This document shows positions 861 to 19,797 of a DNA stretch of 32,476 nucleotides, in pieces. A model generated the notes under the pieces. That model worked only from the letters and a program-made list of their open reading frames with translations. It did no database searches and was not told the DNA's origin. A program made the position numbers and the translations under genes. Each line of letters opens with the position of its first letter. Positions within the stretch are counted from its first letter, which is position 1. Source of the stretch: Deltaproteobacteria bacterium (lineage in GTDB: Bacteria > Desulfobacterota > Desulfobaccia > Desulfobaccales > 0-14-0-80-60-11); the NCBI GenBank assembly GCA_021817645.1, contig JAKAGH010000002.1, forward strand, positions 1 through 32,476. The letters are read 5' to 3'.

Positions 861-871
861 ATTCAGAGCTG

Positions 872-1007: not shown

Positions 1008-1018
1008 TCATTCCTTCC

Positions 1019-4306: not shown

Positions 4307-4323
4307 AGCCGGTCCCCCACAGG

Positions 4324-4914: not shown

Positions 4915-5117
4915 TTTCTGCGCTCAGAGAACCCTTGGTGATATGATACCAAAATCTGCACCCCTAAGGAAGGCGCAAGCCATTCTCATCACCAGGAATT
5001 GCCGGATGGTGCCGCGGCTCCATCTATGATAAATAATTAGCCAATGGCATGGTCAATTTTTACTGCTCTAAAATCTAGTGCTGCTGGCTACCGGATTATG
5101 GACGGCGGGTTAAATTG

Positions 5118-7181
5118 ATGTCGGCCCTTGATGATTCCCGGAAATTCCCCTGGTATTTTATTCTGATATTCTGCATTCTCTCCCTGGGAATTTTAGCCAC
5201 GGGATATTTATATTATAAGAACCAAGAGAGTTACATTAAAAAAGAAAAGCAACAAGAGCTTGCCGCCATTGTTGCCCTTAAAGTAGAACAGATCATCTCC
5301 TGGCGCCAGGAACGCCTCGATTATGCCAGCACGATTATGGATGACCCCTTTTTAGCCATACGGGTGATGGATTTTTTCAAGGGGAAAACCCAGCCTCTAC
5401 TCCGGAAACAGATTCTCGACCGGCTGACAGCCCTGGCCTCATACCAATATCACAGCCTGGCGTTAATCGATCCCCAAGGGAATATCAAGTTGGCCGCGCC
5501 GGCGTCGGGGAGAGAGCTTAACTCCTACTTGCAGTCCTTGGCGGCCCAAGCCATCCAGACCCAAAAAGTCGTTTTTTCCGACCTTTATCTGGATGAAGAC
5601 TCCAAAGCCCGGCTCAGCGTTCTCACTCCGCTCCTGGTCATGCAAGGGGAGAAAAAGATTACTGTGGGCGTTATTCTGATGAGGATTGAACCTTATCAGT
5701 TTCTTTATCCTTTGCTGAAGTCGTGGCCTACCCCGAGTCTGACCGGAGAGACCGAACTGGTCCGCCGGGACGGCAATGAAGTGGTCTTTCTCAACGAACT
5801 CCGGCATCAGAAGAACACCCCCCTGAAGTTACGGTTCCCCGTAAATTCGCCCCACCTGCTGGCCGCCAGTGTTGCCCGGGGACAAAAAGGCATTGTGGAG
5901 GGCCGGGACTATCGGGGAGTGCCGGTAATTGCCGCAGTGGGATGCATTCCTGATTCCTCCTGGTTCATCATCGCCAAAACCGACGCCGACGAGATTTATG
6001 CCCCTCTAAGTAAGCTGACCCATGAAGTCGTTTTTCTCCTGATTATCTTGATTGGCGCGGCAGGCATCGGTGTGGCTTATCTCTCCCGGAATCAGCAAAT
6101 TAGCTTTTACCGCCGGCAATATGAGGTGGAGCGGGAGCGCCGCGCCCTGGCGCGGCGTTATGAGTATCTCACCAGGTTTGCCAATGATATCATCCTGGTG
6201 GCGGACGGCAATCTGCTCATTGTGGAAGCTAACGACCAGGCGGTGGTCTCTTACGGATATGAGCGGGACGAACTCCTGAAACTCCATGTCCTGGATTTAT
6301 ATCCGCCGGGGTCTGAACGGCTTCTTGATGCCCTGATACTACACGGTAAAGAGAAAAGCGGGCTGATTTTTGAAGCCATTCAGCAGAGGAAAGATGGCTC
6401 GGCTTTTCCGGTGGAGGTCAGCCTGCGCCAATTGGAAATAGAAGGCGAAATATTGTTCCAGGAAATCATCCGGGATATCACCGAGCGCAAGCATACTGAA
6501 GAATCTCTCAAAGAATCGGCCAAGAACCTGCGCCATCTAGCCTCTCAGCTCCTGCGGGCCCAGGAAGACGAGCGGAAACGCATCTCCCGGGAATTGCACG
6601 ATCAACTGGGACATGCATTGCTGGCGCTGAAGCTGCAGTTAGAAGCAGTGGCCACAAATTTGTTGCCTGAACAGAGTTCCCTCAAAGCCGAGGTGAGTAA
6701 GATCCTCGCCTTCATGGGCACGACCATAGAAGAGGTGCGCCGCCTCTATCTTGATCTCAGCCCTGGTGACCTGGAGGATTTGGGTCTCACCGCGGCTTTG
6801 CAATCCCTGGTGGATGATTTTGCCGATCTCCAGAAGCACTTAGAATTTACCATTGACCTGGACGACATCGACGACCTCTTTGCCTTGCCCGTGCAGACCG
6901 CGATCTACCGGGTAGTGCAGGAGGCTTTGACGAACATCGGCAAGCACGCCCAACCGCAGCATGTGTCGTTGCAGGTTAAGCGGGATGGGCAAAAAGTCTC
7001 TTTTATGATTGCAGACGATGGCCTGGGCTTCGATCGTTATCTGCACGCCGAGAAGAAAACCCTGGGTCTCATAACTATGGAAGAGCGCGTTAAAATCCTG
7101 GGCGGCTCTTTTGACCTCTGGAGCCAAAAAAAACAGGGCACCAGAATCTCTTTTACCATTCCCATAACCGGAGAACCATAA
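5118..7181 (+). CDS. Sensor histidine kinase, NarL-partner type (periplasmic sensor domain, PAS, HisKA_3, HATPase_c)
   Basis: Two TM helices flank a periplasmic domain of about 270 aa, followed by a PAS-like segment. The HisKA_3 H-box is ELHDQLGHALLALKL. The ATPase N-box is EALTNIGKHA and the G-boxes are DDGLGF / GLITMEERVKILGG. ATG 5118 is preferred over TTG 5115. Confidence 0.9.
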   Translation: MSALDDSRKFPWYFILIFCILSLGILATGYLYYKNQESYIKKEKQQELAAIVALKVEQIISWRQERLDYASTIMDDPFLAIRVMDFFKGKTQPLLRKQILDRLTALASYQYHSLALIDPQGNIKLAAPASGRELNSYLQSLAAQAIQTQKVVFSDLYLDEDSKARLSVLTPLLVMQGEKKITVGVILMRIEPYQFLYPLLKSWPTPSLTGETELVRRDGNEVVFLNELRHQKNTPLKLRFPVNSPHLLAASVARGQKGIVEGRDYRGVPVIAAVGCIPDSSWFIIAKTDADEIYAPLSKLTHEVVFLLIILIGAAGIGVAYLSRNQQISFYRRQYEVERERRALARRYEYLTRFANDIILVADGNLLIVEANDQAVVSYGYERDELLKLHVLDLYPPGSERLLDALILHGKEKSGLIFEAIQQRKDGSAFPVEVSLRQLEIEGEILFQEIIRDITERKHTEESLKESAKNLRHLASQLLRAQEDERKRISRELHDQLGHALLALKLQLEAVATNLLPEQSSLKAEVSKILAFMGTTIEEVRRLYLDLSPGDLEDLGLTAALQSLVDDFADLQKHLEFTIDLDDIDDLFALPVQTAIYRVVQEALTNIGKHAQPQHVSLQVKRDGQKVSFMIADDGLGFDRYLHAEKKTLGLITMEERVKILGGSFDLWSQKKQGTRISFTIPITGEP

Positions 7182-7183
7182 GC

Positions 7184-7822
7184 ATGGATGCGTATACCAT
7201 CGTCCTGGCCGATGATCACATGATGTTCCGTGAAGGAGTTAAACGCATCATTGAGCAGAGCCAGGATGTCTGCATCACTGGTGAGGCCAATGACGGTCTC
7301 GAGTTGCTGGATTTCCTGAAAAAATCCCCCCCCGATCTGGTCATTCTGGACATTTCCATGCCCAATCTGCGCGGCCTGGAAGCCATCAAAGAAATTAAGA
7401 GGGGCTACCCCCAGGTAAAGATCCTGGTTTTGACCATGCACAAAAAAAAGGAATTTATCCGCCAAGCCCTCAGCAGCGGTGCGGATGGCTTTTTGCTCAA
7501 GGAAGACGCCGGCGGCGAGCTGATTCGAGCAGTGCAGTTAATCAGGAAAGGCGGCAAATATATTTCCCCTCTATTGGCCACCATGATGGCAAGTCTGGCC
7601 GTAGAGCAGGGCCAGGCCGAAATCCTCACGATCCGGGAAAGAGAAGTCTTAAAGCTCCTGGCAGAAGGGAAAAGAACCGAAGAAATTGCCGCGGTGCTGC
7701 ACATCAGCCCTCATACAGTGCGCCGCCACCGTTACAATATCATGGAGAAGTTAGATATCAACAACCTGGCCGATCTGCTCAAATACGCTATTTCCCACCA
7801 TTATCTCGTTGACTTTTCTTAG
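7184..7822 (+). CDS. NarL/FixJ-family response regulator (REC + LuxR HTH)
   Basis: MDAYTIVLADDH..., phospho-acceptor context LVILDISMP, and a LuxR-type HTH (LTIREREVLKLLAEGKRTEEIAAVLHISPHTVRRHRYNIMEKL). It starts 2 nt after the kinase stop. Confidence 0.92.
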   Translation: MDAYTIVLADDHMMFREGVKRIIEQSQDVCITGEANDGLELLDFLKKSPPDLVILDISMPNLRGLEAIKEIKRGYPQVKILVLTMHKKKEFIRQALSSGADGFLLKEDAGGELIRAVQLIRKGGKYISPLLATMMASLAVEQGQAEILTIREREVLKLLAEGKRTEEIAAVLHISPHTVRRHRYNIMEKLDINNLADLLKYAISHHYLVDFS

Positions 7823-8077
7823 GTTTGCCTTCCTGCATTTGATCAAAATGATCATAAGAAAATGGTCAGCCCAGCTATCGACTTCCAGCCTCACCTTTCC
7901 CATACTATTACGCGGTTGAAAGATTTTCCTGTTTAACTTGGCCGGGAGCAATTCCCGGGGAACAGCATTTCCCCCCCCGGCCAAAACCGCAGGAACATCG
8001 GCGCCGGAGGCGGGACGCCCCGGCTTGGGGCGGCATCCGCCTCAAGGCAAGGATTTCCAATGCAAGGGGGAAGCATC

Positions 8078-8308
8078 ATGAAGCCAATCATTCTGTTAAT
8101 GGTGGGAATTCTGGTTTTAGGGGGCTGTTCCAGCATGTCCCCCACCGAGCAACGCGTGCTGAGCGGCGGCGCCATGGGTGCGGCCGGGGGCGCGGTCATC
8201 GGGGCCGTGGCCGGCTCGCCCGCCCTTGGTGCGGCGATCGGCGGAGGCGCCGGCCTCCTGGGAGGGTTGGCCTACGATCAAATTCAGAAATCCCAGGGGA
8301 GGCCCTAA
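8078..8308 (+). CDS. Small glycine-zipper lipoprotein (OsmB/YMGG-like)
   Basis: MKPIILLMVGILVLGGC lipobox, then a Gly/Ala zipper GGAMGAAGGAVIGAVAGSPALGAAIGGGAGLLGG. A GGGGGA Shine-Dalgarno sits before ATG 8078, so the track start at 8060 is probably too long. Confidence 0.75.
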   Translation: MKPIILLMVGILVLGGCSSMSPTEQRVLSGGAMGAAGGAVIGAVAGSPALGAAIGGGAGLLGGLAYDQIQKSQGRP

Positions 8309-8340
8309 GGCCGGGACCTGTCTGTTATCGAGAGGTGGCC

Positions 8341-9015
8341 ATGGATCCATATAAAATTGTCCTGGCCGATGATCACACCATATTTCGGCAAGCAGTCAGG
8401 AGACTGCTGGCGGGAGTCCCCGGCCTGAAGATTGTGGGGGAGGCCGCGGATGGGCTGGAATTGTTGCAGCTTATCCAACAGACTTCTCCCCAATTGGTGA
8501 TTCTGGATCTTTCCATGCCGAATTACGGCGGCATGGCGGCTGTTAAAGAAATGAAGCGAATCCATCGCCAGATAAAGGTGTTGATCTTAAGCATGCACAA
8601 AACCCGGGCACATTTTTACCGGGCCATATCCTTGCAGGTTCAGGGGTACCTGCTCAAAGAAGATACCCATGAGGAACTGATTGCCGCGATCAAGGTGATC
8701 CGGGGTGGGGGAACCTATATTTCGACCCTTTTAGCCGAACGGATTCCCGAGATCAAGGCCAAAAAGCGCCTTGGGGACCTGGCCTGGCAGGAAGATCCCT
8801 TGAGTGATCGGGAAATGCAAATCTTGAGTTTCCTGGCAGAAGGCAAAACTAACCAAGAAATCGCGGACCTGCTGTCTCTTAGCATCAGAACCGTTCAAGC
8901 GCATCGCTATAACATCAAGGCTAAATTGGACCTCAGGAAATCCATCGAGTTGATAAAATACGCCATTGACAAAGGATACACCATGATGGACTCCGCTGAA
9001 TCCCCGGAAGCTTAA
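8341..9015 (+). CDS. Second NarL/FixJ-family response regulator, a paralogue of 7184-7822
   Basis: MDPYKIVLADDH... parallels the N-terminus of RR1. Acceptor context is LVILDLSMP; the LuxR HTH is LSDREMQILSFLAEGKTNQEIADLLSLSIRTVQAHRYNIKAKL. ATG 8341 with an upstream GAGAGG is preferred over GTG 8335. Confidence 0.9.
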   Translation: MDPYKIVLADDHTIFRQAVRRLLAGVPGLKIVGEAADGLELLQLIQQTSPQLVILDLSMPNYGGMAAVKEMKRIHRQIKVLILSMHKTRAHFYRAISLQVQGYLLKEDTHEELIAAIKVIRGGGTYISTLLAERIPEIKAKKRLGDLAWQEDPLSDREMQILSFLAEGKTNQEIADLLSLSIRTVQAHRYNIKAKLDLRKSIELIKYAIDKGYTMMDSAESPEA

Positions 9016-9020
9016 GCCAA

Positions 9021-9509
9021 ATGGGACCAGCAACCATTAATAAGGGCCGCGGCGCCTGGCTTTGCGCTTTAGGGCTGATTATTTGCCTGCTTGGCTGTCA
9101 GACGCAGGTTAGCAAAGTGCCACCATCGCCGCCGCCGCTGCCGCCAAGGCCGGCGCAACCCAAAGCAGCGCGCCCCACTTTTTATGTGACCGCCAATCAG
9201 CTTAGCTTGCGGGCCTGTCCCGGCCTGGATTGCAAAAAAATTACTGCCCTGAAATTAAATGCCGAAGTGGAAAAGATGGGGGAGATCCAAAATTGGACTC
9301 AGATTAAGGTAAAAAAGGATGGGACGATAGGTTATGTCAGCTCCCGCTATCTCTCCCCACACCCCGTGGACGCGGCACACCTTGCCAAAAAAAAACCCAA
9401 GAAAATAAAACCTCGCAAAGCTGCCCAGCCTCCTGAAGCGCCGGTGGAAGAGGGAAAGGTCCTGCCCGCGAATCAAGAGCCTGAGCCGCCAATCCCCCGG
9501 GTCATGTAG
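9021..9509 (+). CDS. SH3b-domain lipoprotein with a Pro-rich linker and a Lys-rich tail
   Basis: Lipobox LLGCQ, then PPSPPPLPPRPAQP, then an SH3b module (FYVTANQLSLRACPGLDC...WTQIKVKKDGTIGYVSSRYL) resembling repeat 2 of the protein at 3503-4306. Confidence 0.8.
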   Translation: MGPATINKGRGAWLCALGLIICLLGCQTQVSKVPPSPPPLPPRPAQPKAARPTFYVTANQLSLRACPGLDCKKITALKLNAEVEKMGEIQNWTQIKVKKDGTIGYVSSRYLSPHPVDAAHLAKKKPKKIKPRKAAQPPEAPVEEGKVLPANQEPEPPIPRVM

Positions 9510-9589
9510 GAGGAGGCAGGAGTCAAGGGCATAGATTTGCAGGACAAAATATCCCGCTCTTATTCAGAAGTTCCTGCGCCGCGCCGGGG

Positions 9590-10042
9590 TCATTTGCGGC
9601 CAGGAGGTGGCGGCGGAGGCGGCGGTCCAGCAGCTGGGCACATGCCCATGCCCATCCCGGGTCCGGGACCCATATCGAAATTGGGGGCGATCTTCTTGGC
9701 TTCCGACCGGGTGGCCGTCATCTTCTCCAGTATCTGGTCTCCCAGAGCATTCAACTCCTTCTGCTTGGCCTGGATGGCGTTTTGATCAGGCTTCTCCGCC
9801 TTCCCCAAGGCCTCCAGTTCCGCATTCTTGACCATCATCTGCCTGCGCAGACTGGCGGTGTCGGCATACATCTTTTCATTGAGGTCGAAAATCTTGCCTG
9901 CCTGCTCCGGGGTCAGATTCATCATCACGGGGCCGTGGCCCATGCCCTTCCCCATGGGCTGGGCCCAGACGGAGGCCACCAGACCCAGACTCAATGCCAG
10001 GGCCAAGACCAGCAGCAACGGTAATTTCCCTGATTTCTTCAA
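9590..10042 (-). CDS. Spy/CpxP/ZraP-family periplasmic protein (annotated in databases as periplasmic heavy metal sensor) with Met/Gly-rich ends and a Pro8 tail
   Basis: Signal peptide ending VWA, then LTPEQ...(LRRQMMVKNAELEAL...KPDQNAIQAKQKELNAL), the helical hairpin pattern typical of the LTxxQ family. MGKGMGHG and GPGPGMGMGM motifs are present and the C-terminus is PPPPPPPPGRK. TTG start with an AGGAG 10 nt upstream. Confidence 0.8.
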   Translation of the reverse strand: MKKSGKLPLLLVLALALSLGLVASVWAQPMGKGMGHGPVMMNLTPEQAGKIFDLNEKMYADTASLRRQMMVKNAELEALGKAEKPDQNAIQAKQKELNALGDQILEKMTATRSEAKKIAPNFDMGPGPGMGMGMCPAAGPPPPPPPPGRK

Positions 10043-10376
10043 CTTATCTATCTCCTCTATCTCTGGCCATGGACCATAACCCTGATGGGACTCCTACCGC
10101 CCTCCCTTAGTCAATGCTTTGTCCGCCAAATTTTTCATAATTTCTTTTTTCAGCCCCCCTGGTATGGAGCTGGCCCAAGAATTTTTGAAGCACAATCTGG
10201 CTGGGGCTGAATGCCCCGCCAAGGCCGTTACGCTCAAACATTACACGGAATAGCAAGTGGCCGCTCAGATCGGGGATTAATCCGCCCGCGTGAGTTAAGG
10301 CTCCTGTCGTTTACCGCCGTTTTGACCTTGCGAAAAAACCCAGGAATTGTACACATCTCGATTTGTCATCGACAGA

Positions 10377-11864
10377 CTAAGGCGCGCCGGTATGGCACTG
10401 GTTACACAGGATTTCCGGGGGGATTTCTCCTCCAGGATGGTCGAATTTCAACCCCTGCAGGCTCATGGTCTCCGGTTGCTGACCGCCCTGGGCGGTGATT
10501 ATATGACACGAGTTGCAGGCATTGGAGATGGCCCGGCCTGTCTCGTTGACATGGGAACCATCGTGGCAGCGAAAGCAACCCGGCCAAATATAATGCCCGA
10601 TATTGTTTGGCCGCACTTTCCAGTCCGTTTTCATTTCCGGGAAGAAATTGTCTCGAAAGATCCTCTGAGTCTCGGAGATCGCCTGCCCGATCTTTGGCTG
10701 GTCCTGGTAATCAGGGTACCCTTTCGAGAGTTTTTCAGCAATCAGGGCAATCCCAGGGGCCTGCGAAACAGCCCCGGCGGCCTTGACTAGAGCCTCGGCC
10801 GCCTTCGCTTTTATGGAAGGAATGGCAGGATCGATACGACCCAGCCACAAGGAAGCATCCAGAGCGGTATAGGGAGAATCGAAAATGTGGGTGGGACGAT
10901 TGTGGCAGTCGACACAGTCGAGCACCCGCACGGGCAGAGTTTTTTGTTGGGGGGTCAATGGATCGTTCTTTGACTGGTAGACGGTGACCGCGCCTGTCTG
11001 TCGATTCGTCACGCGCACCCAGGGGATGGTTTGCCGGCTCTCATCCGTGGCAATGTACTCCATGCGGTTGCCCACATTCATATGCCAGTGGATGCCTTCA
11101 ACCGGCCCCTTGGTGGGATCTGCCCCTCCCACCTTCACCAGCAATCTTATATTCCACGGAGTGTTTTGCTTGTCAGGCAGGAAGAATTGGCGGCGCAGTT
11201 CCACCCATCCAAAAAATTTCGCCGGCCAATGGCACTGTTCGCAGGTTTCCGGCGCGGGCCGCAGGTTTTGGACCGGCACTGGAATGGGCCGTGGATATGA
11301 GTTAGTAACGGTTGCATAGACCTGATAGAGGCCGGAGAGCTTGGAGCGGACAAACCAGGAAGCGCCCGGGCCGATATGGCATTCCGTGCATCGTACCCTG
11401 GCGTGGGGAGAGATTTTGTACGTGGTGTATTCCGGCTTCATCGGCGTGTGGCACAAAGCGCCGCAAAACTCCGACGATTCCGTCACCTGAAACGCGCGGT
11501 AGCTTCCTAACGAGGTGAGCAAAAGAAAAAGGGATGTGCAGGCAAGCGCCACGACAAGTTGGCGCGTGCGCCTCTCGCCACTTGCCTCATCGCGGGCCTC
11601 AGCCGCCGTTAGTTTTTTGCGCCGGCGGAGTTCCAGCCATGCTCCCACTCCCCCGAAAATGAGGCCAATCCAAACAAATGACGGGACAATCAGGTAGATC
11701 AGGATGCCCATGTAGGGCTGTCTGAAACCCTGAAACAGGTCAACTGCTATCAGAAAAAGCTCGACGAACAGGCAGCACACGGCCACCACAACGCCGAAGA
11801 TGCCAACCCAGTTGCCGACCAGGGCGGAAACCCATTGGGAACGCTTGGACTTAGGCCCTTTCAT
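10377..11864 (-). CDS. Membrane-anchored heptahaem c-type cytochrome, NapC/NirT family (ImcH-like architecture); putative quinol/quinone-pool oxidoreductase
   Basis: 2-3 N-terminal TM helices and seven CXXCH motifs: CGALCH, CTECH, CEQCH, CVDCH, CFRCH, CNSCH, CNQCH. The first two sit in a NapC/NirT-like module (CGALCHTPMKPEY..Y..SPHA...C.ECH). Confidence 0.88.
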   Translation of the reverse strand: MKGPKSKRSQWVSALVGNWVGIFGVVVAVCCLFVELFLIAVDLFQGFRQPYMGILIYLIVPSFVWIGLIFGGVGAWLELRRRKKLTAAEARDEASGERRTRQLVVALACTSLFLLLTSLGSYRAFQVTESSEFCGALCHTPMKPEYTTYKISPHARVRCTECHIGPGASWFVRSKLSGLYQVYATVTNSYPRPIPVPVQNLRPAPETCEQCHWPAKFFGWVELRRQFFLPDKQNTPWNIRLLVKVGGADPTKGPVEGIHWHMNVGNRMEYIATDESRQTIPWVRVTNRQTGAVTVYQSKNDPLTPQQKTLPVRVLDCVDCHNRPTHIFDSPYTALDASLWLGRIDPAIPSIKAKAAEALVKAAGAVSQAPGIALIAEKLSKGYPDYQDQPKIGQAISETQRIFRDNFFPEMKTDWKVRPNNIGHYIWPGCFRCHDGSHVNETGRAISNACNSCHIITAQGGQQPETMSLQGLKFDHPGGEIPPEILCNQCHTGAP

Positions 11865-11919
11865 GAACGAAGGGGTTCCAAATCGATGCTAAAAGAGTGG
11901 CTGCAGCCGGTCACAACCG

Positions 11920-12246
11920 TTAGTGTTTCGCAACTGACTTAAGATAAGCTATCACGTCCTGCAGTTCTGCATCGGTTAACTTGAATTCCGGCATTTTTAC
12001 TTTGGGATCGATGGCTTTCTTGGGGTTGGTGATCGCCTCCTTGAGGAAAGCGTCGGTCTTGCCCCCGGCAAGCATTTCAATGGGCTTGCCCAGGACGGGC
12101 TTGCCCGGTTCGGGCGCCTTGTGGCACAGGGCGCATTTTTTGCTATCTGCCAGGGCTTTTCCCTTTTCCGCAGAACCGCCTTGAGCCCATGCAAAAGCGG
12201 CAATTCCAATCGATGCCAAAAAAAAGACCATAACTTTAGATTTCAT
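11920..12246 (-). CDS. Periplasmic monohaem class-I cytochrome c (MtoD-like by size and position)
   Basis: 108 aa with signal peptide MKSKVMVFFLASIGIAAFAWA, a single CALCH, and a distal Met candidate (KVKMPEF). AGGAGG Shine-Dalgarno. Confidence 0.85.
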   Translation of the reverse strand: MKSKVMVFFLASIGIAAFAWAQGGSAEKGKALADSKKCALCHKAPEPGKPVLGKPIEMLAGGKTDAFLKEAITNPKKAIDPKVKMPEFKLTDAELQDVIAYLKSVAKH

Positions 12247-12390
12247 TTTTCCTCCTGTATTTGGGCCACGGCAATCATGAACGGAGAGCCCCCGCTGTTT
12301 CCAGTTTATCTGCGGTGCATGATAGAAACAAGCTTAAAACAATGCAGACGCGGTTGAAATCACTCTTGCCACTCACCCCTTCAGCCCAAA

Positions 12391-14433
12391 CTAAAACTTG
12401 TACTGTAAAAATGCCTGCACCACGTGCGCCGTGGCGTTCCTGTAGAACCCGTCCAGGGTATTAAACGCCTGACTGGCGCCCGGCGCGCCCGCCGCAGTGA
12501 TTCCCCGCGTGTAAAGCGTTTGGTACGCCTGGCTCATGAAGAAGGCCTCGTATATGTATCCCCCTCTGATAGCCCAGTGCTCGTTGTACTGATAGGTGAG
12601 AAATGTACGGATATCGGCAAAGGTTTCGTTCAGATTGGGCATGAACGAGTTGTGGAAATCCGATTTCGCAAAAGAGTAGCTGGCCCTGGTCGTGAGCTTC
12701 ACCTTTTTCGGAATGAGCTTAAAGTCCGCACTGGCGAAAAAAGTGTCATATGAATCGGAGGTGGTCAAAGTGGGGCCCGAATCACCCTGGATCCGAGCAA
12801 CTTCCCCATTAATTGCGCCATTGGGGGCCAGTTCTTTAACTTGGAGTTGCTGGTGGTCGTATCCCAGGCTCAACGCCACCCGGTCATGCGGCCTCCAGCT
12901 CACATCCACTCCGGTCGACCAGCCTCGATCGCTTTGGATACCAAGGGCCGAGTTGGTAAAATTGTCGTTATAGATCGAGAAATTACCGGAGCAGGTGACA
13001 GTATCCCAGGGATAAACTTCGGCAACGAAATTGGCGTTGTTCCGGTTGAGGCTGCCCGAGTAGAATTTGTAAGTCAGCGGCACCAGCACGGCCGTCGGAT
13101 CCCCCGTCTGCGTCACAAACGCCAGAGGATTACTCCCCGTCCTGGTGGTGAACGAATAGTTGGCCAGCAGGCTCAGCCAGTTAGTAGGAGACACCCTGAC
13201 GCCCGCCTGGGGCGTGTGACTCGAGGTATTGCCCTGTTCATTGCCGCGGGTGTCTCCTTTCCAGTTATAGCCGACAGTGACGGCCACCTTGTTGTTCACT
13301 CTATAATCAGCGCCGAGGTTGATGCCCTGCCGGAAATACGAATAGTGCTCAGCTGCCAGAAGGGTTGGGTTGTTTCCGAATGCCCTCAGCAAAACTTGAT
13401 TTTCTGAAGCTTTGTTATCATTCGAATAATTATAAGCCCTGTACGCATATCTCAAGGTTAACGGGGCGATTGGACGGGTTATGCCTGCAAGATCCGCGGC
13501 CAGAGTCGAAGCGCTGAGACCCGCAAGGCCGTCAAATCTGCCAGCCACGGTAGGAGGGGGCCCAGCACCAGTGGCACTCTCGAAGACATAGTCGTTCTGG
13601 GACAGCCAGCCGTAGGACAACGAACCGGTGATCCTGGTCTTGTAGGACTTCAGGTCCAGTGCCCCCTCACCGGTAACGTAGTTGGCCATATTGCTTCCGG
13701 GCAGGGAGTTAAAGGCGAGCGCCCCGACCGGCTGCTGCCTGGCCAAAACGTCTGCCTGCCCATTATCAAAGGTCGAAAGATGATAAGAGACGCGACCCTG
13801 AAAAATCGACCGCTTTTCAGTCGGCTGATCATATTCCGCGCCGACTCTCAGGTCGTTTTGCTTATAATTAATCGGTCTGAGAAAGGTGGTAAAATTATAG
13901 GGATTGCCAGGACCAGTAAGGTAGCTCCCTGCCTGCCAGCCGTTTCTTTTCAGGAATTGGTCCTCGGCGAACAGGGTGAAATTAAGTGTGGGCGAGTAGT
14001 AGCCGCTGAACCGCAGTCTCTGCAACACAATCCCAATACGGTTAGCAGTGGGATTCACCGTGCAGTAAAGGTTTTGGAGCTGGTCATACTCAATTTGGGC
14101 ATGATAGAGCCCGAGTTTGCCTATCTGGAGCAAGTAATCCTGATCTGCTAATCCCGGATGGCTCATCCGGAAATTATAATATTCGAGGCCGTCCTTGCTC
14201 TTCAGCCAGATATCGGTATCCGCGAGAAACCCTTCGGGGAAGGGAACATACTTTTTCAAATATGACCGGTCCATATGTCTGGGTTGATCGGAGACCCATC
14301 CTCCACCCAAGGCGATATAGCCGCCCAAGGTGTAATTGGTCCCCGCGTCCATGTCAGCGAAGCCACCCCCGCAGGTCAGAGTGATAAACATGACTGCGAG
14401 AAAAACGACCAGGATTTCTCTCTTAAGCTTCAT
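12391..14433 (-). CDS. Outer-membrane beta-barrel, MtrB/PioB family (decahaem-associated porin)
   Basis: About 680 aa with a signal peptide. Alternating-residue beta-strand composition is rich in Y/G/N/S/T, and the C-terminal barrel signature is ...VQAFLQYKF. It starts 10-13 nt after the decahaem gene stop. ATG 14433 is preferred over GTG 14436. Confidence 0.8.
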   Translation of the reverse strand: MKLKREILVVFLAVMFITLTCGGGFADMDAGTNYTLGGYIALGGGWVSDQPRHMDRSYLKKYVPFPEGFLADTDIWLKSKDGLEYYNFRMSHPGLADQDYLLQIGKLGLYHAQIEYDQLQNLYCTVNPTANRIGIVLQRLRFSGYYSPTLNFTLFAEDQFLKRNGWQAGSYLTGPGNPYNFTTFLRPINYKQNDLRVGAEYDQPTEKRSIFQGRVSYHLSTFDNGQADVLARQQPVGALAFNSLPGSNMANYVTGEGALDLKSYKTRITGSLSYGWLSQNDYVFESATGAGPPPTVAGRFDGLAGLSASTLAADLAGITRPIAPLTLRYAYRAYNYSNDNKASENQVLLRAFGNNPTLLAAEHYSYFRQGINLGADYRVNNKVAVTVGYNWKGDTRGNEQGNTSSHTPQAGVRVSPTNWLSLLANYSFTTRTGSNPLAFVTQTGDPTAVLVPLTYKFYSGSLNRNNANFVAEVYPWDTVTCSGNFSIYNDNFTNSALGIQSDRGWSTGVDVSWRPHDRVALSLGYDHQQLQVKELAPNGAINGEVARIQGDSGPTLTTSDSYDTFFASADFKLIPKKVKLTTRASYSFAKSDFHNSFMPNLNETFADIRTFLTYQYNEHWAIRGGYIYEAFFMSQAYQTLYTRGITAAGAPGASQAFNTLDGFYRNATAHVVQAFLQYKF

Positions 14434-14446
14434 CACCCCCCCCTTT

Positions 14447-15397
14447 TTATCTAAAGAATAAATTGCCCTGGATATTGTTGCTGCCGTGGATGTTCCGGTG
14501 ACAGTTGACGCACGCCGAGCCGGCCATCATATTTATCCTTCTCTTTTCCGCCCCCCCCGCCCCCGAGATCGTGAAATTGACGTTGTGGAAGGTAATATGG
14601 CAATCCCGGCACAACCTGATGGGAGGTTGTTTCAGCAGGGCGGGATAGGCGCTGCCGTGGGGCTGATGGCAATTGAAACAATCCTCCATGACGGGCGGAT
14701 GCTGAAAAATGAACGGACCTCGGTACTGGGCGTGACAATTGAAGCAAAGTTCTCTAGTGGAAATAGCTTTTACGAGCTTGGGGGAAGCAGTCCCGTGTGG
14801 GTTGTGGCAACTCGCGCAGTTCATTTTTCCCTCGCGCACGGGATGATGGGAAAATTTGTTCTCCGCACGAACTTGCTCTTTATGACAGGTATTGCACGTA
14901 TCCGCTACGGTTAAACGGGCGAGTTGAAAACGATTCGCTGCTCCCGGTCCCGTATGGACTACGTGGCACGATGTGCAAGCGACGCCGTTGGTGTCATGAA
15001 CACTGCCCGACCAGAAAAGCCTATTCCTCTTTTGATGGCACTTGAGACAGGCATCGTTTTGCATGGAAATCGGCGTGGGCGTCCCCTTCGTAAATCGAAC
15101 CATACCCGCGAATGATGTGCCTCCCGAACCAACATGCTCTGTTGCCGGTCCATGACATGTTTCACACCCAAGTTTTTCACCAGCAGTACGGGGGTGCTTC
15201 AAAAACAGGGTGCCCATAGCCGTCTTGGCGAGGATATCGTACACTTTTTGGTGACAGGCTTGGCAGGTTTCCGCGCCTGCATACCCTGCATTGGCCTTTT
15301 CGGCCTTTTTGTCCTCTGCCGGTGCTTTTGAGAAAGAAAGAAGAAAAACCAGGATTACAAAGACAAAAGTCAGTGCGGAAATGGAAATTTTGCGCAT
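14447..15397 (-). CDS. Periplasmic decahaem c-type cytochrome, MtrA/DmsE/PioA/MtoA family
   Basis: 316 aa with a signal peptide and ten CXXCH motifs: CQACH, CETCH, CLKCH, CTSCH, CNTCH, CASCH, CFNCH, CFNCH, CRDCH, CVNCH. Family-typical strings are HHPVREGKMNCASCHNPHG, RGPFIFQHPPVMEDCFNCHQPHGS and CVNCHRNIHGSN. Confidence 0.92.
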   Translation of the reverse strand: MRKISISALTFVFVILVFLLSFSKAPAEDKKAEKANAGYAGAETCQACHQKVYDILAKTAMGTLFLKHPRTAGEKLGCETCHGPATEHVGSGGTSFAGMVRFTKGTPTPISMQNDACLKCHQKRNRLFWSGSVHDTNGVACTSCHVVHTGPGAANRFQLARLTVADTCNTCHKEQVRAENKFSHHPVREGKMNCASCHNPHGTASPKLVKAISTRELCFNCHAQYRGPFIFQHPPVMEDCFNCHQPHGSAYPALLKQPPIRLCRDCHITFHNVNFTISGAGGAEKRRINMMAGSACVNCHRNIHGSNNIQGNLFFR

Positions 15398-15559
15398 CGC
15401 CCCCCCCCGGTGATGTCCATTAAATTGTGGAAATTTGGTTTAAATGATTGAAATTGGTTTCAGGGTTTCACCTCTCCAGTTTTTGTTGAGCATTGGGGTT
15501 ATGCTATAGAAGATTCGATCAAAACTGGCTTCACTGGTTGAACAGTTCTTCATGGACCG

Positions 15560-15596
15560 GGTGCGCCGGCGCACCTCCCGGAAAGCCGTTCCGGGA
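15560..15596. promoter_or_regulatory. Two abutting palindromes upstream of the decahaem operon; candidate operator or structured element
   Basis: A perfect 16-bp palindrome GGTGCGCCGGCGCACC lies at 15560-15575. It is followed directly by tcccggaa-agccg-ttccggga (15576-15596, 8-bp arms), about 165-200 nt upstream of the ATG at 15397. Confidence 0.3.
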
Positions 15597-15759
15597 TATT
15601 GGTGGTGCGGATGGACTTCCAGCGCCTGGAGGAAAGTCATAAAGGTGCCGGCAGTTTTCTATCAAAATGATATATATTATGTTTTTTTAATGTTTTTTTT
15701 ATAGTTAAAAATAATAGGAGAAGTCAAGGAAAAAATTAGGGAGTTAAGGATTTTTTCTA

Positions 15760-16075
15760 GCCCCTGTATCTGCCCTTGGGCCGGCTGCTCTGAGGGCGGC
15801 GGGCCCTGGCCCCGGCCCTCCTCATCCTCATCCCCCTTTTCAGCCTGTTGACCATCATTGCCAGCCAGGCTCTGGAATTTTCCCGCAGTGTGAGCCAGGG
15901 CCTGCAACCGGCCACGTCTGGCAATGACTGGCGGCCAATTTGGATGGGGTCAAGGGGTATCTTCACCACCTCAACTTGCCCTTGCCACCGGAGCAGATCA
16001 AGCTGGAGTCCATTGTCCGGACGGTGTTGACCCGGGCCAGCGTCTTCATCTACGCCTGCTATTCCAATACAATGA
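15760..16075 (+). pseudogene. Frameshifted fragment of a membrane permease gene (possibly AI-2E/PerM type)
   Basis: Two different frames read ...ALLILIPLFSLLTIIASQALEFSRSVSQGLQ... and ...YLHHLNLPLPPEQIKLESIVRTVLTRASVFIY.... There is no start or full-length frame. The family assignment is by remembered pattern only. Confidence 0.3.
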
Positions 16076-16189
16076 ATGATTAAGCGGCTGCGGTCGCAGG
16101 GCTTTGGCTGGCGGCGGATTGCCGAATATCTGCGACGTTACAATGAGTCTCACCCAGAAATGGAAAAGGGTTTAGGCCCGTTAACCTAA
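16076..16189 (+). pseudogene. 37-aa HTH-like mini-ORF, probably a remnant of a recombinase/regulator gene
   Basis: My own translation is MIKRLRSQGFGWRRIAEYLRRYNESHPEMEKGLGPLT*. GWRRIAEYL resembles a resolvase/Hin-type HTH recognition region. It ends 28 nt from the tRNA fragment's 3' end. Confidence 0.25.
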
Positions 16190-16198
16190 ACCCTCGCT
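16145..16198 (+). repeat. Copy A of a ~54-nt imperfect direct repeat flanking the tRNA fragment
   Basis: gagtctcac...cccgttaacc-taaaccctcgc aligns with 16397-16450, gattctcac...cccgttaacc-ctatccctcgg. The 10-nt core cccgttaacc is identical at 16177-16186 and 16430-16439. Confidence 0.55.
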
Positions 16199-16216
16199 TA
16201 AGTATCTGCAATTACT

Positions 16217-16301
16217 TGGTGCCGGAGGCCGGACTCGAACCGGCACAAGGTTGCCCTCGGGGGATTTTGAGTCCATACCACCGAGCTTCACAACTCCTCA
16301 A
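16217..16301 (-). tRNA. tRNA-Leu(CAA)-like sequence in which only the 3' ~58 nt are canonical; probably a truncated or pseudo tRNA (att-type remnant)
   Basis: The minus strand reads ...GGACTCAAAATCCCCCGAGGGCAACCTTGTGCCGGTTCGAGTCCGGCCTCCGGCACCA (16274-16217). It has a perfect T-arm GCCGG-TTCGAGT-CCGGC, a long variable arm CGAGG-GCAA-CCTTG, an anticodon loop CTCAAAA and a terminal CCA. The 5' side (TGAGGAG...) pairs with the 3' acceptor strand CTCCGGC at only 4 of 7 positions, and the 5' anticodon stem (ATGGA against TCCCC) has 2 mismatches. Confidence 0.55.
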
Positions 16302-16396
16302 TTTATGGCAACTTATTGATATTGATGGATTTTAATTTTCTATCCACTAACCGATTTTTCACCTTCTGGCAGATTTTGGAGGGAATCTCTCACACG

Positions 16397-16450
16397 GATT
16401 CTCACACAAAAAAGCGAGAGCTTCTATGACCCGTTAACCCTATCCCTCGG
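16397..16450 (+). repeat. Copy B of the ~54-nt imperfect direct repeat flanking the tRNA fragment
   Basis: See copy A. It is followed by gcggcgcacaagttgcaccc, which loosely resembles the tRNA variable-arm segment ccggcacaaggttgccctc. Confidence 0.5.
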
Positions 16451-16644
16451 CTGATTCTTCCCACTGCGGCGCACAAGTTGCACCCATCGGTGCTTTATCC
16501 TCCGCCCAGGCAACAAACAGCATACTAAGAATGAAGGGGTAGGCCAATCTTAGATTGTCATTAGCACCCGGAGTGCAACAAAGGCCATGAAGAAGTGGCG
16601 CGGTGCTATACACCTTTGGCCAGAGCGTGATCTGTGCTCATGAC

Positions 16645-19600
16645 CTACGTCTGAGAATCCTGTGCGTCTTCTGCTCGGATCTGCCTGTAGACCTGCTCCA
16701 GGAGATGGCCGGTAACGGCCTTCTGGAAATCCTTCTCGTTCAAGAACTTAGCTGTGATCTCCTCATTTTGCTCCATACGGTCAATAAATAATCCTTCCAG
16801 GGCCTTACGGAAAACGTAACCGAAATTTTCCATGGTGTTGGCGCTAGCCGCCTGGCGCAAGTTCGTATCGGCCACTGCGTCCTCGCGGATCGAATCGAAG
16901 AAAAGCTGGTCCCCGGGCTTAAATTCCGTACCAAACCGGTCATTTAGAAGATCGATCAGCTTTGAAAGCTCAATCTCCTCGCCCCGGGCAATCCCGGTAC
17001 CCACGTCCGTCGGACCCGACACCGGCTCCTCTCTACCCGGTTCCAGGTTGATCGAGCCCTCGCTAATTTTTTGCAGCCGGTAGAATTTGAGCGCCACCTC
17101 ATCATCGAAGTTATAGACCGGCCCCTGGTCGCCCCGGGGCAGCTTGGTTAGCAGGAAACGAATGTAGGAATATAGCTTCTCCAGATCCGAATCCTGGAAG
17201 GGGATGATCTGCGAGAGGAAGGCATACAGGTTGCGGTAGGCCACCAGCGTCTTGCGGAACTCCTCCCGGACCTCTTCCTCCAGATCGCGATAGCGGTTTA
17301 CCGCCGGGTCAATGCAGGCATTCATCCGGGCATGGTCTGCCGCGGTCTGATGGCGTTTGGGCTTGTAGAAAATCTTGCAGAACTCCGCCACCTCCGCTTT
17401 ATAGTAGACCTGCACCGCTTCCAGCTTCGCCTGCAGTTCATAAAGCTGTTTTGGGTCGGCCCGCTCACCGATGAGCGTCTGTTCGTAATAGGGCTGGAAC
17501 GCCGCCAAAATTTCTTCCGCCTCATTCACGAAGTCGAGGACAAAAGTATCCTCCTTGCCAGCATGAGTGCGGTTAAGACGCGACAGCGTTTGCACCGCCT
17601 GAATGCCCGCCAGGCGCTTATCCACATACATCGTCTGCAAGAGCGGCTGGTCGAAGCCGGTCTGGTACTTCTCGGCTACCAGCAGCACCTGGTATTGGTC
17701 CGTCCCGAACCGCTCGGGCAGCTCCTTCTCCCGAATACCCCCATTCATGCTGACTTCGGTATATTCCACGCTTGGAGCGTCGGGATCTACCACGGTACCG
17801 GAGAAGGCCACCAGAGTCTTGATGCCCTTATAGCCTTTCTCGGCGATGTATTTGTCAAAAGCTTGTTTGTAGCGGACAGCATGAAGGCGGCTGGAGGCCG
17901 TCACCATGGCCTTGGCCTTGCCGCCGATCTTGTGCATGGTGAAGTGGCGGAAGTGCTCCACCATGACTTCTGTCTTCTGGGCGATGTTATACGGATGCAG
18001 GCTCATGAATCGCGCCAGGGCCCGGCCGGCCTTGCGCTTGTCCACCTTGGGATCGTCTTCGATGTATTTGATCAGCCGATAGTACGTCTTGTACGTCGTG
18101 TAGTTCTGAAGCACGTCGAGGATGAAGCCTTCTTCGATGGCCTGCCGCATGCTGTAGAGATGGAAAGGCTCGGGTTTACCGTCAGCTCCCGGACGGCCGA
18201 AGACCTCCAGCGTCTTGTATTTCGGTGTGGCCGTGAAGGCGAAAAAGCCGATGTTGGGCTGCCGCCCGCGCTTGGCCATGGTCTTGAGGATTTCTTCCTC
18301 ATAGGTGGGCAGGCTCTCTTCCGTGGCGTACTTCGTCGCTTCTTCGCGAATGATGGCGGCGGCCAGGACGCCTTTGAGTTCCGTCGCCGTCTCACCGCCC
18401 TGGGAACTGTGGGCTTCATCGACAATGACCGCGTAACGGCGCTGGGGCAGGCTCCCGATCTTTTCCGTCACAAAGGGGAACTTTTGGAGCGTGGTCACGA
18501 CAATGGGCACGCCCCTGGCCAGGGCCTCCGCCAACTGCGTGGCGTTCACGTCGATTTTGTGCACCACGCCCTGCTTATGCTCAAACTGGTAAATAGTGTT
18601 CTGCAACTGCTGATCCAGGACCACCCGGTCGGTCACGACAATGACCGAGTCATAGACCTTCTCGTCCTTTTCGTCGTAGAGGCTGGCGAGTCGGTGCGCC
18701 AGCCAGGCGATGGAGTTCGATTTACCGCTCCCGGCCGAATGCTGGACCAGATAATTGGTCCCGGTGCCGCGCTCCCGGGCGTCGGCCACCAGTTTGCGCA
18801 CGCAATCAAGCTGGTGATAACGCGGGAAGATCATGGTCTCGCGCCGGACCTTCTTGCCGCCGAGCTTCTTTTCCTCGACCTGCAAGTGCATGAAGCGCGC
18901 CAGGATATCGAGGAAACTATGCCGCTCCAGGACTCCTTCCCAAAGGTAGGCGGTCTTGTAGCCCCCGGGGTTGTCGGGATTACCGGCGCCGGTGCCGCGT
19001 CCCCGGTTGAAGGGCAGGAAATGCGTGTTCCGGCCCGACAGGCGCGTGGTCATGTACACCTCATCCGTATCCACGGCGAAATGGACCAGGGCCCTCTTCT
19101 TGAACTGGAAGATCAGGTCCGCGGGATCGCGGTCATTTTTGTACTGGGTCACCGCGTGCCGCCAGGTCTGGGCGGTCATGGGGTTCTTGAGCTCCCCCGT
19201 GGCCAACGGCATGCCGTTCAAACTCAGGACCACGTCCAAGGTATTGCCGTGCCGGCTGGAATAACGCAGCTGGCGCGTGATGGTGAGACGGTTGGCGGCA
19301 TAGAGCCTTTGCGTCTCGGGGTTGGGGTGGCTGGCCGGGGCGAAGTAGGCGGCTCGGAATAGCTTACCGAAGCACTTGAACCCATGGCGTAGCACGGACA
19401 AACATCCCTCATGGGGGGAATTAAGAGCCCGGCAGAGGTCGTCCAGCAGCGTCTCTCCCGCTCTGTCCTTCTGGAGGTTCTGCAGGTATTCCCATTCCTT
19501 GGGTTGGGTCTCCCTGACAAAGGCCAGGAAGACTTCCGGGTCAAGACAGCGTTCCGAGTCGAAGGCTGCGCGGTCGCCTTTTTCGTACCCGCCCGCTCCC

Positions 19601-19656
19601 ACCAGGTGCTGTTCGATGGCGGTTTCAAAGGCCTTTTCGGTGTGCTGCCCCGGCAT
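16645..19656 (-). CDS. hsdR: Type I restriction endonuclease subunit R
   Basis: 1003 aa. The N-terminus MPGQHTEKAFETAIEQHL is typical of HsdR. A PD-(D/E)xK-type nuclease motif is present (LDVVLSLNGMPLATGELKN), with Walker A HSAGSGKSNS and DEAH box VIVDEAHSSQ. A helicase C-terminal domain follows. Confidence 0.95.
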   Translation of the reverse strand: MPGQHTEKAFETAIEQHLVGAGGYEKGDRAAFDSERCLDPEVFLAFVRETQPKEWEYLQNLQKDRAGETLLDDLCRALNSPHEGCLSVLRHGFKCFGKLFRAAYFAPASHPNPETQRLYAANRLTITRQLRYSSRHGNTLDVVLSLNGMPLATGELKNPMTAQTWRHAVTQYKNDRDPADLIFQFKKRALVHFAVDTDEVYMTTRLSGRNTHFLPFNRGRGTGAGNPDNPGGYKTAYLWEGVLERHSFLDILARFMHLQVEEKKLGGKKVRRETMIFPRYHQLDCVRKLVADARERGTGTNYLVQHSAGSGKSNSIAWLAHRLASLYDEKDEKVYDSVIVVTDRVVLDQQLQNTIYQFEHKQGVVHKIDVNATQLAEALARGVPIVVTTLQKFPFVTEKIGSLPQRRYAVIVDEAHSSQGGETATELKGVLAAAIIREEATKYATEESLPTYEEEILKTMAKRGRQPNIGFFAFTATPKYKTLEVFGRPGADGKPEPFHLYSMRQAIEEGFILDVLQNYTTYKTYYRLIKYIEDDPKVDKRKAGRALARFMSLHPYNIAQKTEVMVEHFRHFTMHKIGGKAKAMVTASSRLHAVRYKQAFDKYIAEKGYKGIKTLVAFSGTVVDPDAPSVEYTEVSMNGGIREKELPERFGTDQYQVLLVAEKYQTGFDQPLLQTMYVDKRLAGIQAVQTLSRLNRTHAGKEDTFVLDFVNEAEEILAAFQPYYEQTLIGERADPKQLYELQAKLEAVQVYYKAEVAEFCKIFYKPKRHQTAADHARMNACIDPAVNRYRDLEEEVREEFRKTLVAYRNLYAFLSQIIPFQDSDLEKLYSYIRFLLTKLPRGDQGPVYNFDDEVALKFYRLQKISEGSINLEPGREEPVSGPTDVGTGIARGEEIELSKLIDLLNDRFGTEFKPGDQLFFDSIREDAVADTNLRQAASANTMENFGYVFRKALEGLFIDRMEQNEEITAKFLNEKDFQKAVTGHLLEQVYRQIRAEDAQDSQT

Positions 19657-19715
19657 TGGGTGAAACCTCTCCAGTTACCTCGCACTACGTATACTCGGGT
19701 TTTGCCTCAAGACCA

Positions 19716-19797
19716 TTTGTCACAAAATACTTTGTGTCAAGCAATTAATTTATTACTTTACACAACATCTTTTGTCGTGTTTTCGCTTTACACAACC
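19716..19797 (-). promoter_or_regulatory. AT-rich fic-hsdR spacer with an inverted repeat and direct repeats; probable independent hsdR promoter/operator
   Basis: On the minus strand, TTGACACAAA-GTAT-TTTGTGACAA (19740-19717) is an imperfect 10-bp inverted repeat that contains a TTGACA hexamer. The direct repeat ctttacacaac occurs at 19756-19766 and 19786-19796, 30 bp apart. Confidence 0.35.

Follow-up and report, generated by a model that had tools for sequence, protein, structure and literature searches.

The passage of electrons out of the quinone pool into an outer-membrane conduit is, outside Shewanella and Geobacter, the step of extracellular electron transfer (EET) that is understood least. 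The string of four genes considered here, which may encode this step together with the conduit, is located on the minus strand at positions 10377-15397 of a stretch of 32,476 nucleotides (nt) of contig JAKAGH010000002.1 (assembly GCA_021817645.1, from a Deltaproteobacteria bacterium of the Desulfobaccales), and this whole stretch is referred to below as the window. The closest described systems are the mtoAB-mtoD-cymA(ES-1) cluster of Sideroxydans lithotrophicus ES-1 and the mtoA-mtoB-mtoD-mtoC clusters of Gallionella ES-2 and Dechloromonas aromatica (PMC6295460), which, like the window, hold in one string an MtrA-type decahaem, an MtrB-type barrel, a class-I monohaem cytochrome c and an inner-membrane cytochrome that interacts with quinones, and which likewise lack MtrC.

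In the Shewanella system, MtrCAB (PDB 6R2Q) is combined with CymA, a tetrahaem quinol dehydrogenase of ~190 amino acids (aa) that spans the membrane with one helix. The ImcH of Geobacter was defined by three transmembrane helices, homology to NapC/NirT and seven haem motifs that begin with a CXXXCH (Levar et al. 2014), and the Geobacter ImcH group was subsequently described as proteins of 495-519 aa with three transmembrane helices, a CX3CH beside the membrane domain and six CX2CH (Zhong & Shi 2018, PMC6295460), in a survey that found no mtrAB or mtoAB adjacent to imcH. The Geobacter gene is monocistronic (Levar et al. 2014), and its product, a menaquinol oxidase required with extracellular acceptors of high potential, delivers electrons to the trihaem PpcA family. 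Clusters of DmsE/MtrA-type and MtrB/PioB genes, with MtrC absent or located elsewhere, are also found in the Desulfuromonadia, in Desulfuromonas acetexigens, and in other Desulfobacterota (PMC12133095, PMC11492766), although neither report describes imcH or a monohaem gene in the cluster. Given that the accession numbers of ImcH, CbcL and CymA in D. acetexigens are far from those of MtrA and MtrB, these proteins appear to be encoded at separate loci.

Against this background, all four parts of the string in the window belong to known families, and what is new is a conserved string of the Desulfobaccales type, rather than the Desulfuromonadia, in which a quinol oxidase of the Geobacter type is joined, along with its monohaem partner, to an MtrC-less MtrAB. 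The inner-membrane partner is ImcH-like, with three transmembrane helices and seven haems, and is neither the tetrahaem CymA nor the CbcL-like MtoC of the Mto systems, from which the window also differs in its barrel of the MtrB size class (681 aa), in its monohaem, which has no detectable similarity to MtoD and whose family travels with ImcH, and in its host, which is of an anaerobic Desulfobaccales-type lineage and not a microaerophilic Fe(II) oxidiser. Unlike the Shewanella system, the window has no MtrC/OmcA gene in its 32 kb, and its quinol dehydrogenase is ImcH-like and encoded in the same string. Unlike the monocistronic gene of Geobacter, its imcH-like gene lies beside mtrAB and follows a monohaem gene after a gap of 55 nt. 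No earlier description of imcH next to mtrAB or mtoAB was found in the literature, and a 2026 peat preprint on EET gene clusters leaves ImcH unmentioned. The preliminary description of this DNA had judged the arrangement not to be a textbook one, which is consistent with the outcome of the 2018 survey, i.e., the linkage of the Geobacter-type quinol oxidase ImcH to a Shewanella/Sideroxydans-type MtrAB conduit is a pairing that this dedicated survey did not encounter.

Organization of the Four-Gene String

The open reading frame (ORF) listing of the window contains four minus-strand ORFs at 10377-15397, all in the same direction, as had been described, and they are predicted to encode the following proteins:

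14447-15397, minus strand: MtrA/MtoA/DmsE-family decahaem cytochrome c, periplasmic and outer-membrane, with a Sec-type N-terminus; 316 aa, 10 CX2CH
12391-14436, minus strand: MtrB/PioB-family outer-membrane beta-barrel; 681 aa, ~26 strands, ending in FLQYKF, no haem motifs
11920-12246, minus strand: periplasmic class-I monohaem cytochrome c; 108 aa, 1 CX2CH (CALCH)
10377-11864, minus strand: ImcH-like inner-membrane heptahaem quinol:cytochrome c oxidoreductase; 495 aa, three transmembrane helices, CX3CH and six CX2CH

The decahaem and barrel genes are separated by only 10 nt when the barrel is read from its GTG (681 aa), or by 13 nt when counted from the ATG that follows 3 nt later (680 aa), which is the range that had been noted for this gap. 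The barrel-monohaem gap is 144 nt long, that between the monohaem and ImcH-like genes 55 nt, and 334 nt separate the end of the cluster from an unrelated ZraP-like gene. Based on hydrophobicity, the decahaem (residues 4-22), the barrel and the monohaem each have one N-terminal signal-like segment. Identical DNA is present in two other public assemblies.

A haem-motif scan detected no further cytochrome-like ORF in the 32-kb window, where the only other frames with haem-type motifs are three, namely a Cys/His-rich ORF of 66 aa and two short single-motif frames inside other genes. As no other ORF of the window resembles a cytochrome, there is no MtrC/OmcA-type gene nearby, in agreement with the preliminary description, and none of MtrC type was found within 6-8 kb in the checked related loci of the same type. 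No other quinol oxidase gene was found in the window, and the cluster itself contains no terminal oxidase or nitrate reductase.

The Outer-Membrane Module

The decahaem is assigned by its sequence to the MtrA/MtoA/DmsE family, as had been proposed for this 316-aa protein from its ten CXXCH motifs, a count that is correct. It scores 241.7 bits against TIGR03508 (DmsE family; cut-off 192.2), covering model positions 1-256 of 258, and it matches the MtrA of the solved Mtr complex of Shewanella baltica (6r2q_A) over its full length (E 9.5e-57; residues 28-314 against 50-331 of the chain), with which it is collinear and 39% identical over 278 aligned columns. A marginal match to the NapC profile falls on the decahaem rather than on the 495-aa protein.

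The barrel belongs to a divergent MtrB/PioB subfamily. Against PF11854 (MtrB_PioB), it scores 169.8 bits (cut-off 23, E 1.3e-49), with residues 73-681 aligned to positions 25-635 of the 635 in the profile, and a word-based search recovered only 98 clusters of homologues at 43% identity or more and one at 22%. An AlphaFold2 model built from an alignment of 45 homologous sequences (pLDDT 76.5, pTM 0.67) is all-beta, with 26 long strands by DSSP, which is within the 26-28 or so that had been expected from the size class and the FLQYKF end of the protein. In Foldseek searches of the PDB, the best match of this model is MtrB (6r2q_B; E 1.3e-25, TM-scores 0.70/0.73), on which it superposes, and which is 16 orders of magnitude ahead, in E, of the next matches, i.e., TonB-dependent receptors of 22 strands (E ~1e-9, TM-score ~0.4). 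By sequence, on the other hand, the barrel has no match in the PDB, MtrB included, and only the Pfam profile and the fold reveal this kinship. The profile check put forward for the barrel therefore has a divided outcome, given that PF11854 is passed with a wide margin whereas the TIGR03509 (NCBIfam MtrB/PioB) score of 106 bits is below the cut-off of 240. Nonetheless, the PF11854 match, the 26-strand model and MtrB as the best fold match together speak for a large barrel of the MtrB/PioB type.

The ImcH-like Protein and Its Monohaem Partner

The hydrophobic segments of the 495-aa protein, at residues 22-40, 52-70 and 103-121, are separated by basic loops, which place the haem domain in the periplasm. 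The third helix is immediately followed by a CX3CH (CGALCH, 134-139), which provides the first haem site, and CX2CH motifs are located at 159, 208, 317, 430, 450 and 487, so that the seven CXXCH of the preliminary description are correct as to the number of haem sites and amount, as to the motifs, to six CXXCH plus one CXXXCH. All seven are invariant in 49 homologues, and the same pattern of one CX3CH and six CX2CH is found in 81/81 of the ImcH-like ORFs surveyed. Together with the score against PF03264 (NapC/NirT; 37.5 bits, cut-off 24.1), this corresponds in length class, helices, haem motifs and NapC/NirT-like region to the ImcH of Geobacter (GSU3259), and bears out the earlier view that the architecture is not that of the tetrahaem CymA.

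The comparison extends to the surroundings of the first haem. In G. sulfurreducens ImcH, this haem has His137 as its proximal and Gln179 as its distal ligand (Pimenta et al., bioRxiv 10.1101/2023.05.03.539133), and E127, K173 and Y188 are conserved at the putative menaquinol site (bioRxiv 10.1101/2023.05.03.539133). When compared by position with these published residue numbers, H139, Q181, E129, K175 and Y190 of the window protein have the same spacing, with an offset of +2. Among the 49 homologues, Q181 and K175 are invariant and E129 is kept in at least 90%, while position 190 is Tyr or Phe (12 homologues). As judged from its sequence, then, the 495-aa protein carries every published ImcH hallmark that was checked, GSU3259 being compared through its published features. 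The AlphaFold2 model places helices at 19-44, 50-84 and 94-128, although its confidence is low (pLDDT 69), with a poorly predicted haem domain, and a Foldseek search of the PDB with this low-confidence model returned no match below E = 1.

The ImcH-like family comprises 665 representatives at 50% identity (E up to 1e-30) in the Verrucomicrobiota, Acidobacteriota, Ignavibacteriota, Methylomirabilota and other phyla, a range that largely overlaps that published for ImcH homologues. The nearest named homologue of the Desulfuromonadia (Syntrophotaleaceae) is 56% identical to the window protein; Geobacter loci were neither among the best 80 genome loci nor named in a homologue search seeded with the Syntrophotaleaceae sequence, and the family representatives and clusters that were looked up bore only MAG or Pelagicoccus names. 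A further sequence, P0277, which is 37% identical and ends in GPAKH as against the primer-derived PGKH of GSU3259, was not used, since its origin is unconfirmed.

The monohaem scores 42.4 bits against PF00034 (cut-off 21.3), and the conserved Met of its KMPEF motif is likely to be the sixth haem ligand. It had been called an MtoD-like shuttle, but the likeness extends only to the class-I fold (PF00034) and the position of the gene. No match to MtoD, whose structure we take to be the one deposited as PDB 4XXL, was present among 60 of its 62 PDB matches (phmmer, all chains, E up to 10), which are cytochromes c of the mitochondrial type, c2, c551, c552, c555 and c6.

The relatives point, instead, to a cognate partner of the ImcH-like protein. 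Of the 79 species-level ImcH-like loci that have enough upstream sequence, 38 have the ImcH-like gene preceded, on its own strand and at less than 400 nt, by a monohaem ORF, and 36 of these ORFs are homologous to the window monohaem (jackhmmer), in several phyla, although mostly in the Verrucomicrobiota. In two loci, L084 (complete genome CP113000.1) and L106, MtrAB of the window type is accompanied by another ImcH lineage, 51% identical to the ImcH-like protein of the window, and the monohaem is 41-44% identical to a Verrucomicrobiota-like type and only 28% identical to that of the window. The lineage of the monohaem thus tracks that of ImcH, and the two genes move and evolve together. One Desulfobaccales metagenome-assembled genome (MAG) has two tandem copies of the monohaem gene between the barrel and ImcH-like genes (L005, 7001-7945).

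In the Verrucomicrobiota, Acidobacteriota and Ignavibacteriota (loci L008-L082), many ImcH-like genes are flanked by cytochromes of 9, 11 or 13 haems and 590-770 aa, which are encoded directly down- or upstream, e.g., in L019, L026, L029, L039, L076 and L080. These flanks suggest that other, lineage-specific conduits are centred on ImcH.

Conservation of the String in Relatives

The barrel clade was counted over genome loci, look-ups and a metagenome scan, and the counts refer to contigs and not to independent lineages, as some of the loci are near-duplicates. The decahaem gene is located directly upstream of the barrel gene in 34/34 assessable loci. In this clade, which is made up of Desulfobaccales-type MAGs, the monohaem and ImcH-like genes are found within 6 kb of the barrel in 25 of the 32 assessable loci, either downstream on the same strand, at 0.5-1.4 kb (20/32), or inverted and within 4 kb (5/32), and this linkage spans barrel identities of 43-100%. 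The flanking genes, on the other hand, are wholly different among the window, CP113000.1 and the other contigs, and the string, which stays while its flanks change, behaves as a unit.

An ImcH-like gene is absent near the barrel in the other 7/32 loci. Two of these, with a barrel 68% identical to that of the window, have a monohaem ORF and only a short ImcH-like match, whereas five belong to a sister group with barrels 46-48% identical to the window's. In this sister group (46-49% when all its barrels are considered), a cytochrome of 11 haems and ~1,090-1,270 aa is encoded directly upstream of mtrA-mtrB in the loci whose contigs extend that far, which is an MtrCAB-like layout with an outer cytochrome that is not of MtrC size, and no ImcH-like gene was found in the sister loci with at least 2.3 kb of downstream sequence (L086, L087, L110 and L114).

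Seen from the ImcH side, a barrel occurs within 8 kb in five loci of Desulfobaccales-type MAGs and in one Nitrospirota MAG, among the best 80 loci, and linkage to MtrB/PioB is an exception within the ImcH family. The Nitrospirota locus is an independent co-localization of MtrAB and ImcH in another phylum. Its MtrA-like and ImcH-like proteins are 40% and 46% identical to those of the window, its barrel reaches 324 bits against the Pfam profile, and its two multihaem proteins are one of 276 aa and a 10-haem cytochrome of 695 aa. Furthermore, as L084 and L106 indicate, two distinct monohaem-ImcH lineages are attached to the same MtrAB clade. The layouts that depart from that of the window are the following:

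L086, 2287-9046: 11-haem cytochrome, mtrA and mtrB of the sister group; the same in L108, L110 and L114, and similar in L087 and L107, which end at the contig edge
L006, 7641-16376: inverted variant, with monohaem, ImcH-like gene, small ORF, cytochrome b (bc1/b6-type, 401 aa) and 6-haem cytochrome c (464 aa), convergent on mtrB-mtrA
L058 (CAYGBP010000018.1), 98-11089: Nitrospirota MAG, with PAS histidine kinase, MtrA-like protein, MtrB/PioB, two multihaems, ImcH-like protein and [NiFe]-hydrogenase small subunit

The 464-aa cytochrome of the inverted variant is also found between the two modules of the inverted loci L117 and L130, and L006 has, upstream, a tetrahaem and an NrfD-type membrane protein as well. 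This locus looks like a respiratory island that combines quinol oxidases of the ImcH type and of the bc type, the latter perhaps CbcBA-like.

The gap that precedes the monohaem gene ranges from the 144 nt of the window to 150-500 nt in its relatives, and this variation, together with the inverted variants, suggests that mtrAB and cytochrome c-imcH are two transcription sub-units held together by selection, and not one obligatory transcript. Inside the four-gene string, no convincing terminator was found, terminator counts being at chance level, and the RNA structure of the 144-nt gap is unremarkable (z = 0.21). Upstream of the decahaem gene, one site was read by eye:

15698-15727, minus strand: possible promoter, TTGACT-18 nt-TATAAA, in an AT-rich stretch ~300 nt upstream of the decahaem start

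This weak candidate was not listed by a consensus scan, and the promoter-like sites of the region are not above chance.

The Proposed Electron Path and Its Direction

The reading favoured here, in which we have moderate confidence, is an outward path of four proteins that leads from menaquinol to an extracellular acceptor, and the four genes would by themselves provide for electron transfer through the entire cell envelope. The ImcH-like protein, anchored by its three inner-membrane helices, would oxidise menaquinol beside the first haem, which is CX3CH-bound and predicted to be His/Gln-ligated, with the protons released to the periplasm and the electrons running along the seven haems. The monohaem encoded directly upstream would then ferry the electrons across the periplasm to the MtrA-like decahaem, which, threaded through the 26-strand MtrB-like barrel, would pass them through the outer membrane. 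This path would imply physical contacts between successive proteins, and its genes may be co-transcribed. The final acceptor, which would be reached without an MtrC-type surface cytochrome, may be found among, e.g., Fe(III)/Mn(IV) minerals and oxidised humic or particulate organic matter. The existence of the conduit, irrespective of its direction, is considered highly probable, and flow through it is somewhat likely to be outward.

The preliminary description held that the direction of flow cannot be read from the sequence, and the present results lead to the same view, given that there are points for both directions. An outward flow is favoured because ImcH has been implicated so far only in quinol oxidation (PMC6295460), because the hosts are named, as MAGs, as members of an order of anaerobic sulfate reducers, and because the ImcH operon of the inverted variant also carries a bc-type module (cytochrome b and 6-haem c) that resembles a quinol oxidase. 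In G. sulfurreducens, ImcH oxidises menaquinol electroneutrally, with the protons going to the periplasm, and reduces a periplasmic cytochrome.

Several points, nevertheless, weigh against this path or parts of it. Class-I monohaems with His/Met ligation usually have a positive potential, and the shuttle monohaem, which is probably ligated in this way, would create a thermodynamic dip on the outward route, being placed between a low-potential ImcH (-350 to -150 mV for the haems of the Geobacter protein) and an MtrA-type wire. If its potential is indeed high, it might be better matched to inward flow, as proposed for MtoD, or to very oxidising acceptors alone. The MtoAB/PioAB systems that lack MtrC are, moreover, those tied to Fe(II) oxidation, and no interaction with the monohaem PccH was seen for the ImcH of G. 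sulfurreducens. The TIGR03509 score of the barrel is below its cut-off, and two transcription units, rather than a single operon, are suggested by the 144-nt gap and by modules that are separable and in some loci inverted.

The same wire may also run inward, with electrons from Fe(II), a cathode-like mineral, reduced humics or a syntrophic partner entering through an MtoAB-like module and reaching, via the monohaem, an ImcH-like protein that acts as a quinone reductase, or it may be reversible. The absence of an MtrC-type gene from the window and the checked loci is shared with MtoAB/PioAB, the class-I monohaem between the outer and inner modules recalls the position of MtoD in the Sideroxydans gene order (PMC6295460), and the CymA and CbcL/MtoC families have been implicated in both directions (PMC6295460); the Nitrospirota locus also has its hydrogenase gene beside imcH. 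However, the haems of ImcH in Geobacter are at low potential, the reduction of menaquinone by Fe(II) would be uphill, and the cluster has neither a terminal oxidase nor a nitrate reductase, while the host order is one of anaerobic sulfate reducers and the monohaem does not resemble MtoD. An inward or reversible wire is thus regarded as unlikely. Still less likely are two independent neighbours, with the MtrAB conduit served by another inner-membrane protein and the monohaem-ImcH pair feeding unrelated periplasmic acceptors. The pair does occur without MtrAB in ~70 loci of other phyla, MtrAB has no ImcH nearby in the sister group, and the barrel-monohaem gap (144 nt, or 150-500 nt elsewhere) and the five loci in which the units are mutually inverted would fit such independence. 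Against this, adjacency is kept in 25/32 loci despite their different flanks, survives the exchange of the pair for that of another lineage and recurs in the Nitrospirota, and the window offers no other quinol oxidase or cytochrome gene to serve the conduit.

The 495-aa protein might, lastly, be an anchor of the NapC/NirT/NrfH type for a soluble periplasmic reductase (of nitrite, hydroxylamine, trimethylamine N-oxide (TMAO) or dimethyl sulfoxide), so that the cluster would have nothing to do with EET. Database names such as "nitrate/TMAO reductase-like tetrahaem cytochrome c subunit", the NapC/NirT N-terminal Pfam domain and the match of the family profile to the NrfH structure (2j7a_C, E 0.007, over the first three haem sites) point in this direction, as do partial matches to NrfH and TorC. 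All the equivalog scores for reductase anchors are, however, far below their cut-offs (50.8 bits against 134 for NrfH, and likewise for TorC), and the profile matches of the protein include neither the NapC nor the CymA equivalog. Three transmembrane helices and seven haem sites also contrast with the one helix and 4-5 haems of such anchors, and no reductase gene is adjacent in the window or its relatives, where the neighbours are MtrA, MtrB and the monohaem. A grouping with nitrite-reductase partners, which had been named as a possible objection, is not borne out, and the anchor is considered very improbable.

A broader proposal is offered only tentatively. The monohaem c and ImcH may constitute an ancient and mobile two-gene quinol:cytochrome c unit, distributed over at least five phyla, that was plugged into an MtrC-less MtrAB in bacteria of the Desulfobaccales type and, in a separate event, in a lineage of the Nitrospirota. 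This would give the most compact complete wire known that joins the inner membrane with the surface (four genes), perhaps tuned to high-potential or organic (humic/peat) acceptors, or reversible for uptake. If so, the natural periplasmic partner of ImcH outside Geobacter, which has long been sought, would be identified. A specific monohaem is nominated as a partner of ImcH in many uncultured lineages of soil, sediment and peat. Since the candidates for every step are conserved and lie in one cluster, heterologous expression of the four genes offers a direct test of the pathway, and a four-gene wire would be an attractive part for bioelectronic engineering. Relatives of sulfate reducers may, furthermore, respire extracellular substrates or take electrons from them, which bears on the cycling of iron, sulfur and methane in anoxic soils.

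Neighbouring Features of the Window

The ZraP-like gene, the two-component genes, the type I restriction-modification genes and the resistance-nodulation-division (RND) efflux genes were considered as parts of the system and rejected, as they are not conserved beside the string in its relatives. The first of these (9590-10042, minus strand), which follows the ImcH-like gene, encodes a ZraP/Metal_resist-like periplasmic protein with an unusual Gly/Met/Pro-rich C-terminus (...MGPGPGMGMGMCPAAGPPPPPPPPGRK).

Further on, at 5115-9509 on the plus strand, there are a PAS/HisKA_3 histidine kinase, two LuxR-type response regulators, a Gly-zipper lipoprotein-like ORF and an SH3_3 protein. In L004 and L005, the decahaem gene has related receiver domains (~50% identical) encoded ~2.5 kb upstream, and mtrA of the Nitrospirota locus L058 comes after a histidine kinase; the two-component genes may have a regulatory link to the cytochrome string.

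At the opposite end of the string, a spacer of 1.2 kb (15400-16640) extends from the decahaem gene to hsdR without an intact gene, and is AT-rich at ~15680-15760. At ~16220-16290, it resembles the 3' half of a tRNA (...GGTTCGAGTCCGGCCTCCGGCACCA), where ARAGORN and Rfam call nothing; for the window as a whole, there were no Rfam matches and no ARAGORN tRNAs. The spacer also contains short ORF fragments that resemble the remnants of mobile elements, e.g., MIKRLRSQGFGWRRIAEYLRRYNES, with a weak match to HTH_38, and it may be an old integration scar beside the cytochrome string. It is followed, at 16645-24249 on the minus strand, by a complete type I restriction-modification system (HsdR of 1003 aa, HsdS and HsdM), with a Fic/DOC-family gene between hsdR and hsdS.

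Finally, the 66-aa ORF found in the haem-motif scan (25162-25362, plus strand) combines a hydrophobic segment at its N-terminus with a Cys/His-rich tail (CIPCH, CAGDCAH, CCGCH), with no match in Pfam. A CusCBA-like efflux operon (OEP, 25519-26760; HlyD_D23, 26757-28022; AcrB-type, 28022-31153) follows it after 157 nt, and the product of the ORF could be a small periplasmic peptide that binds metal, and not a cytochrome.

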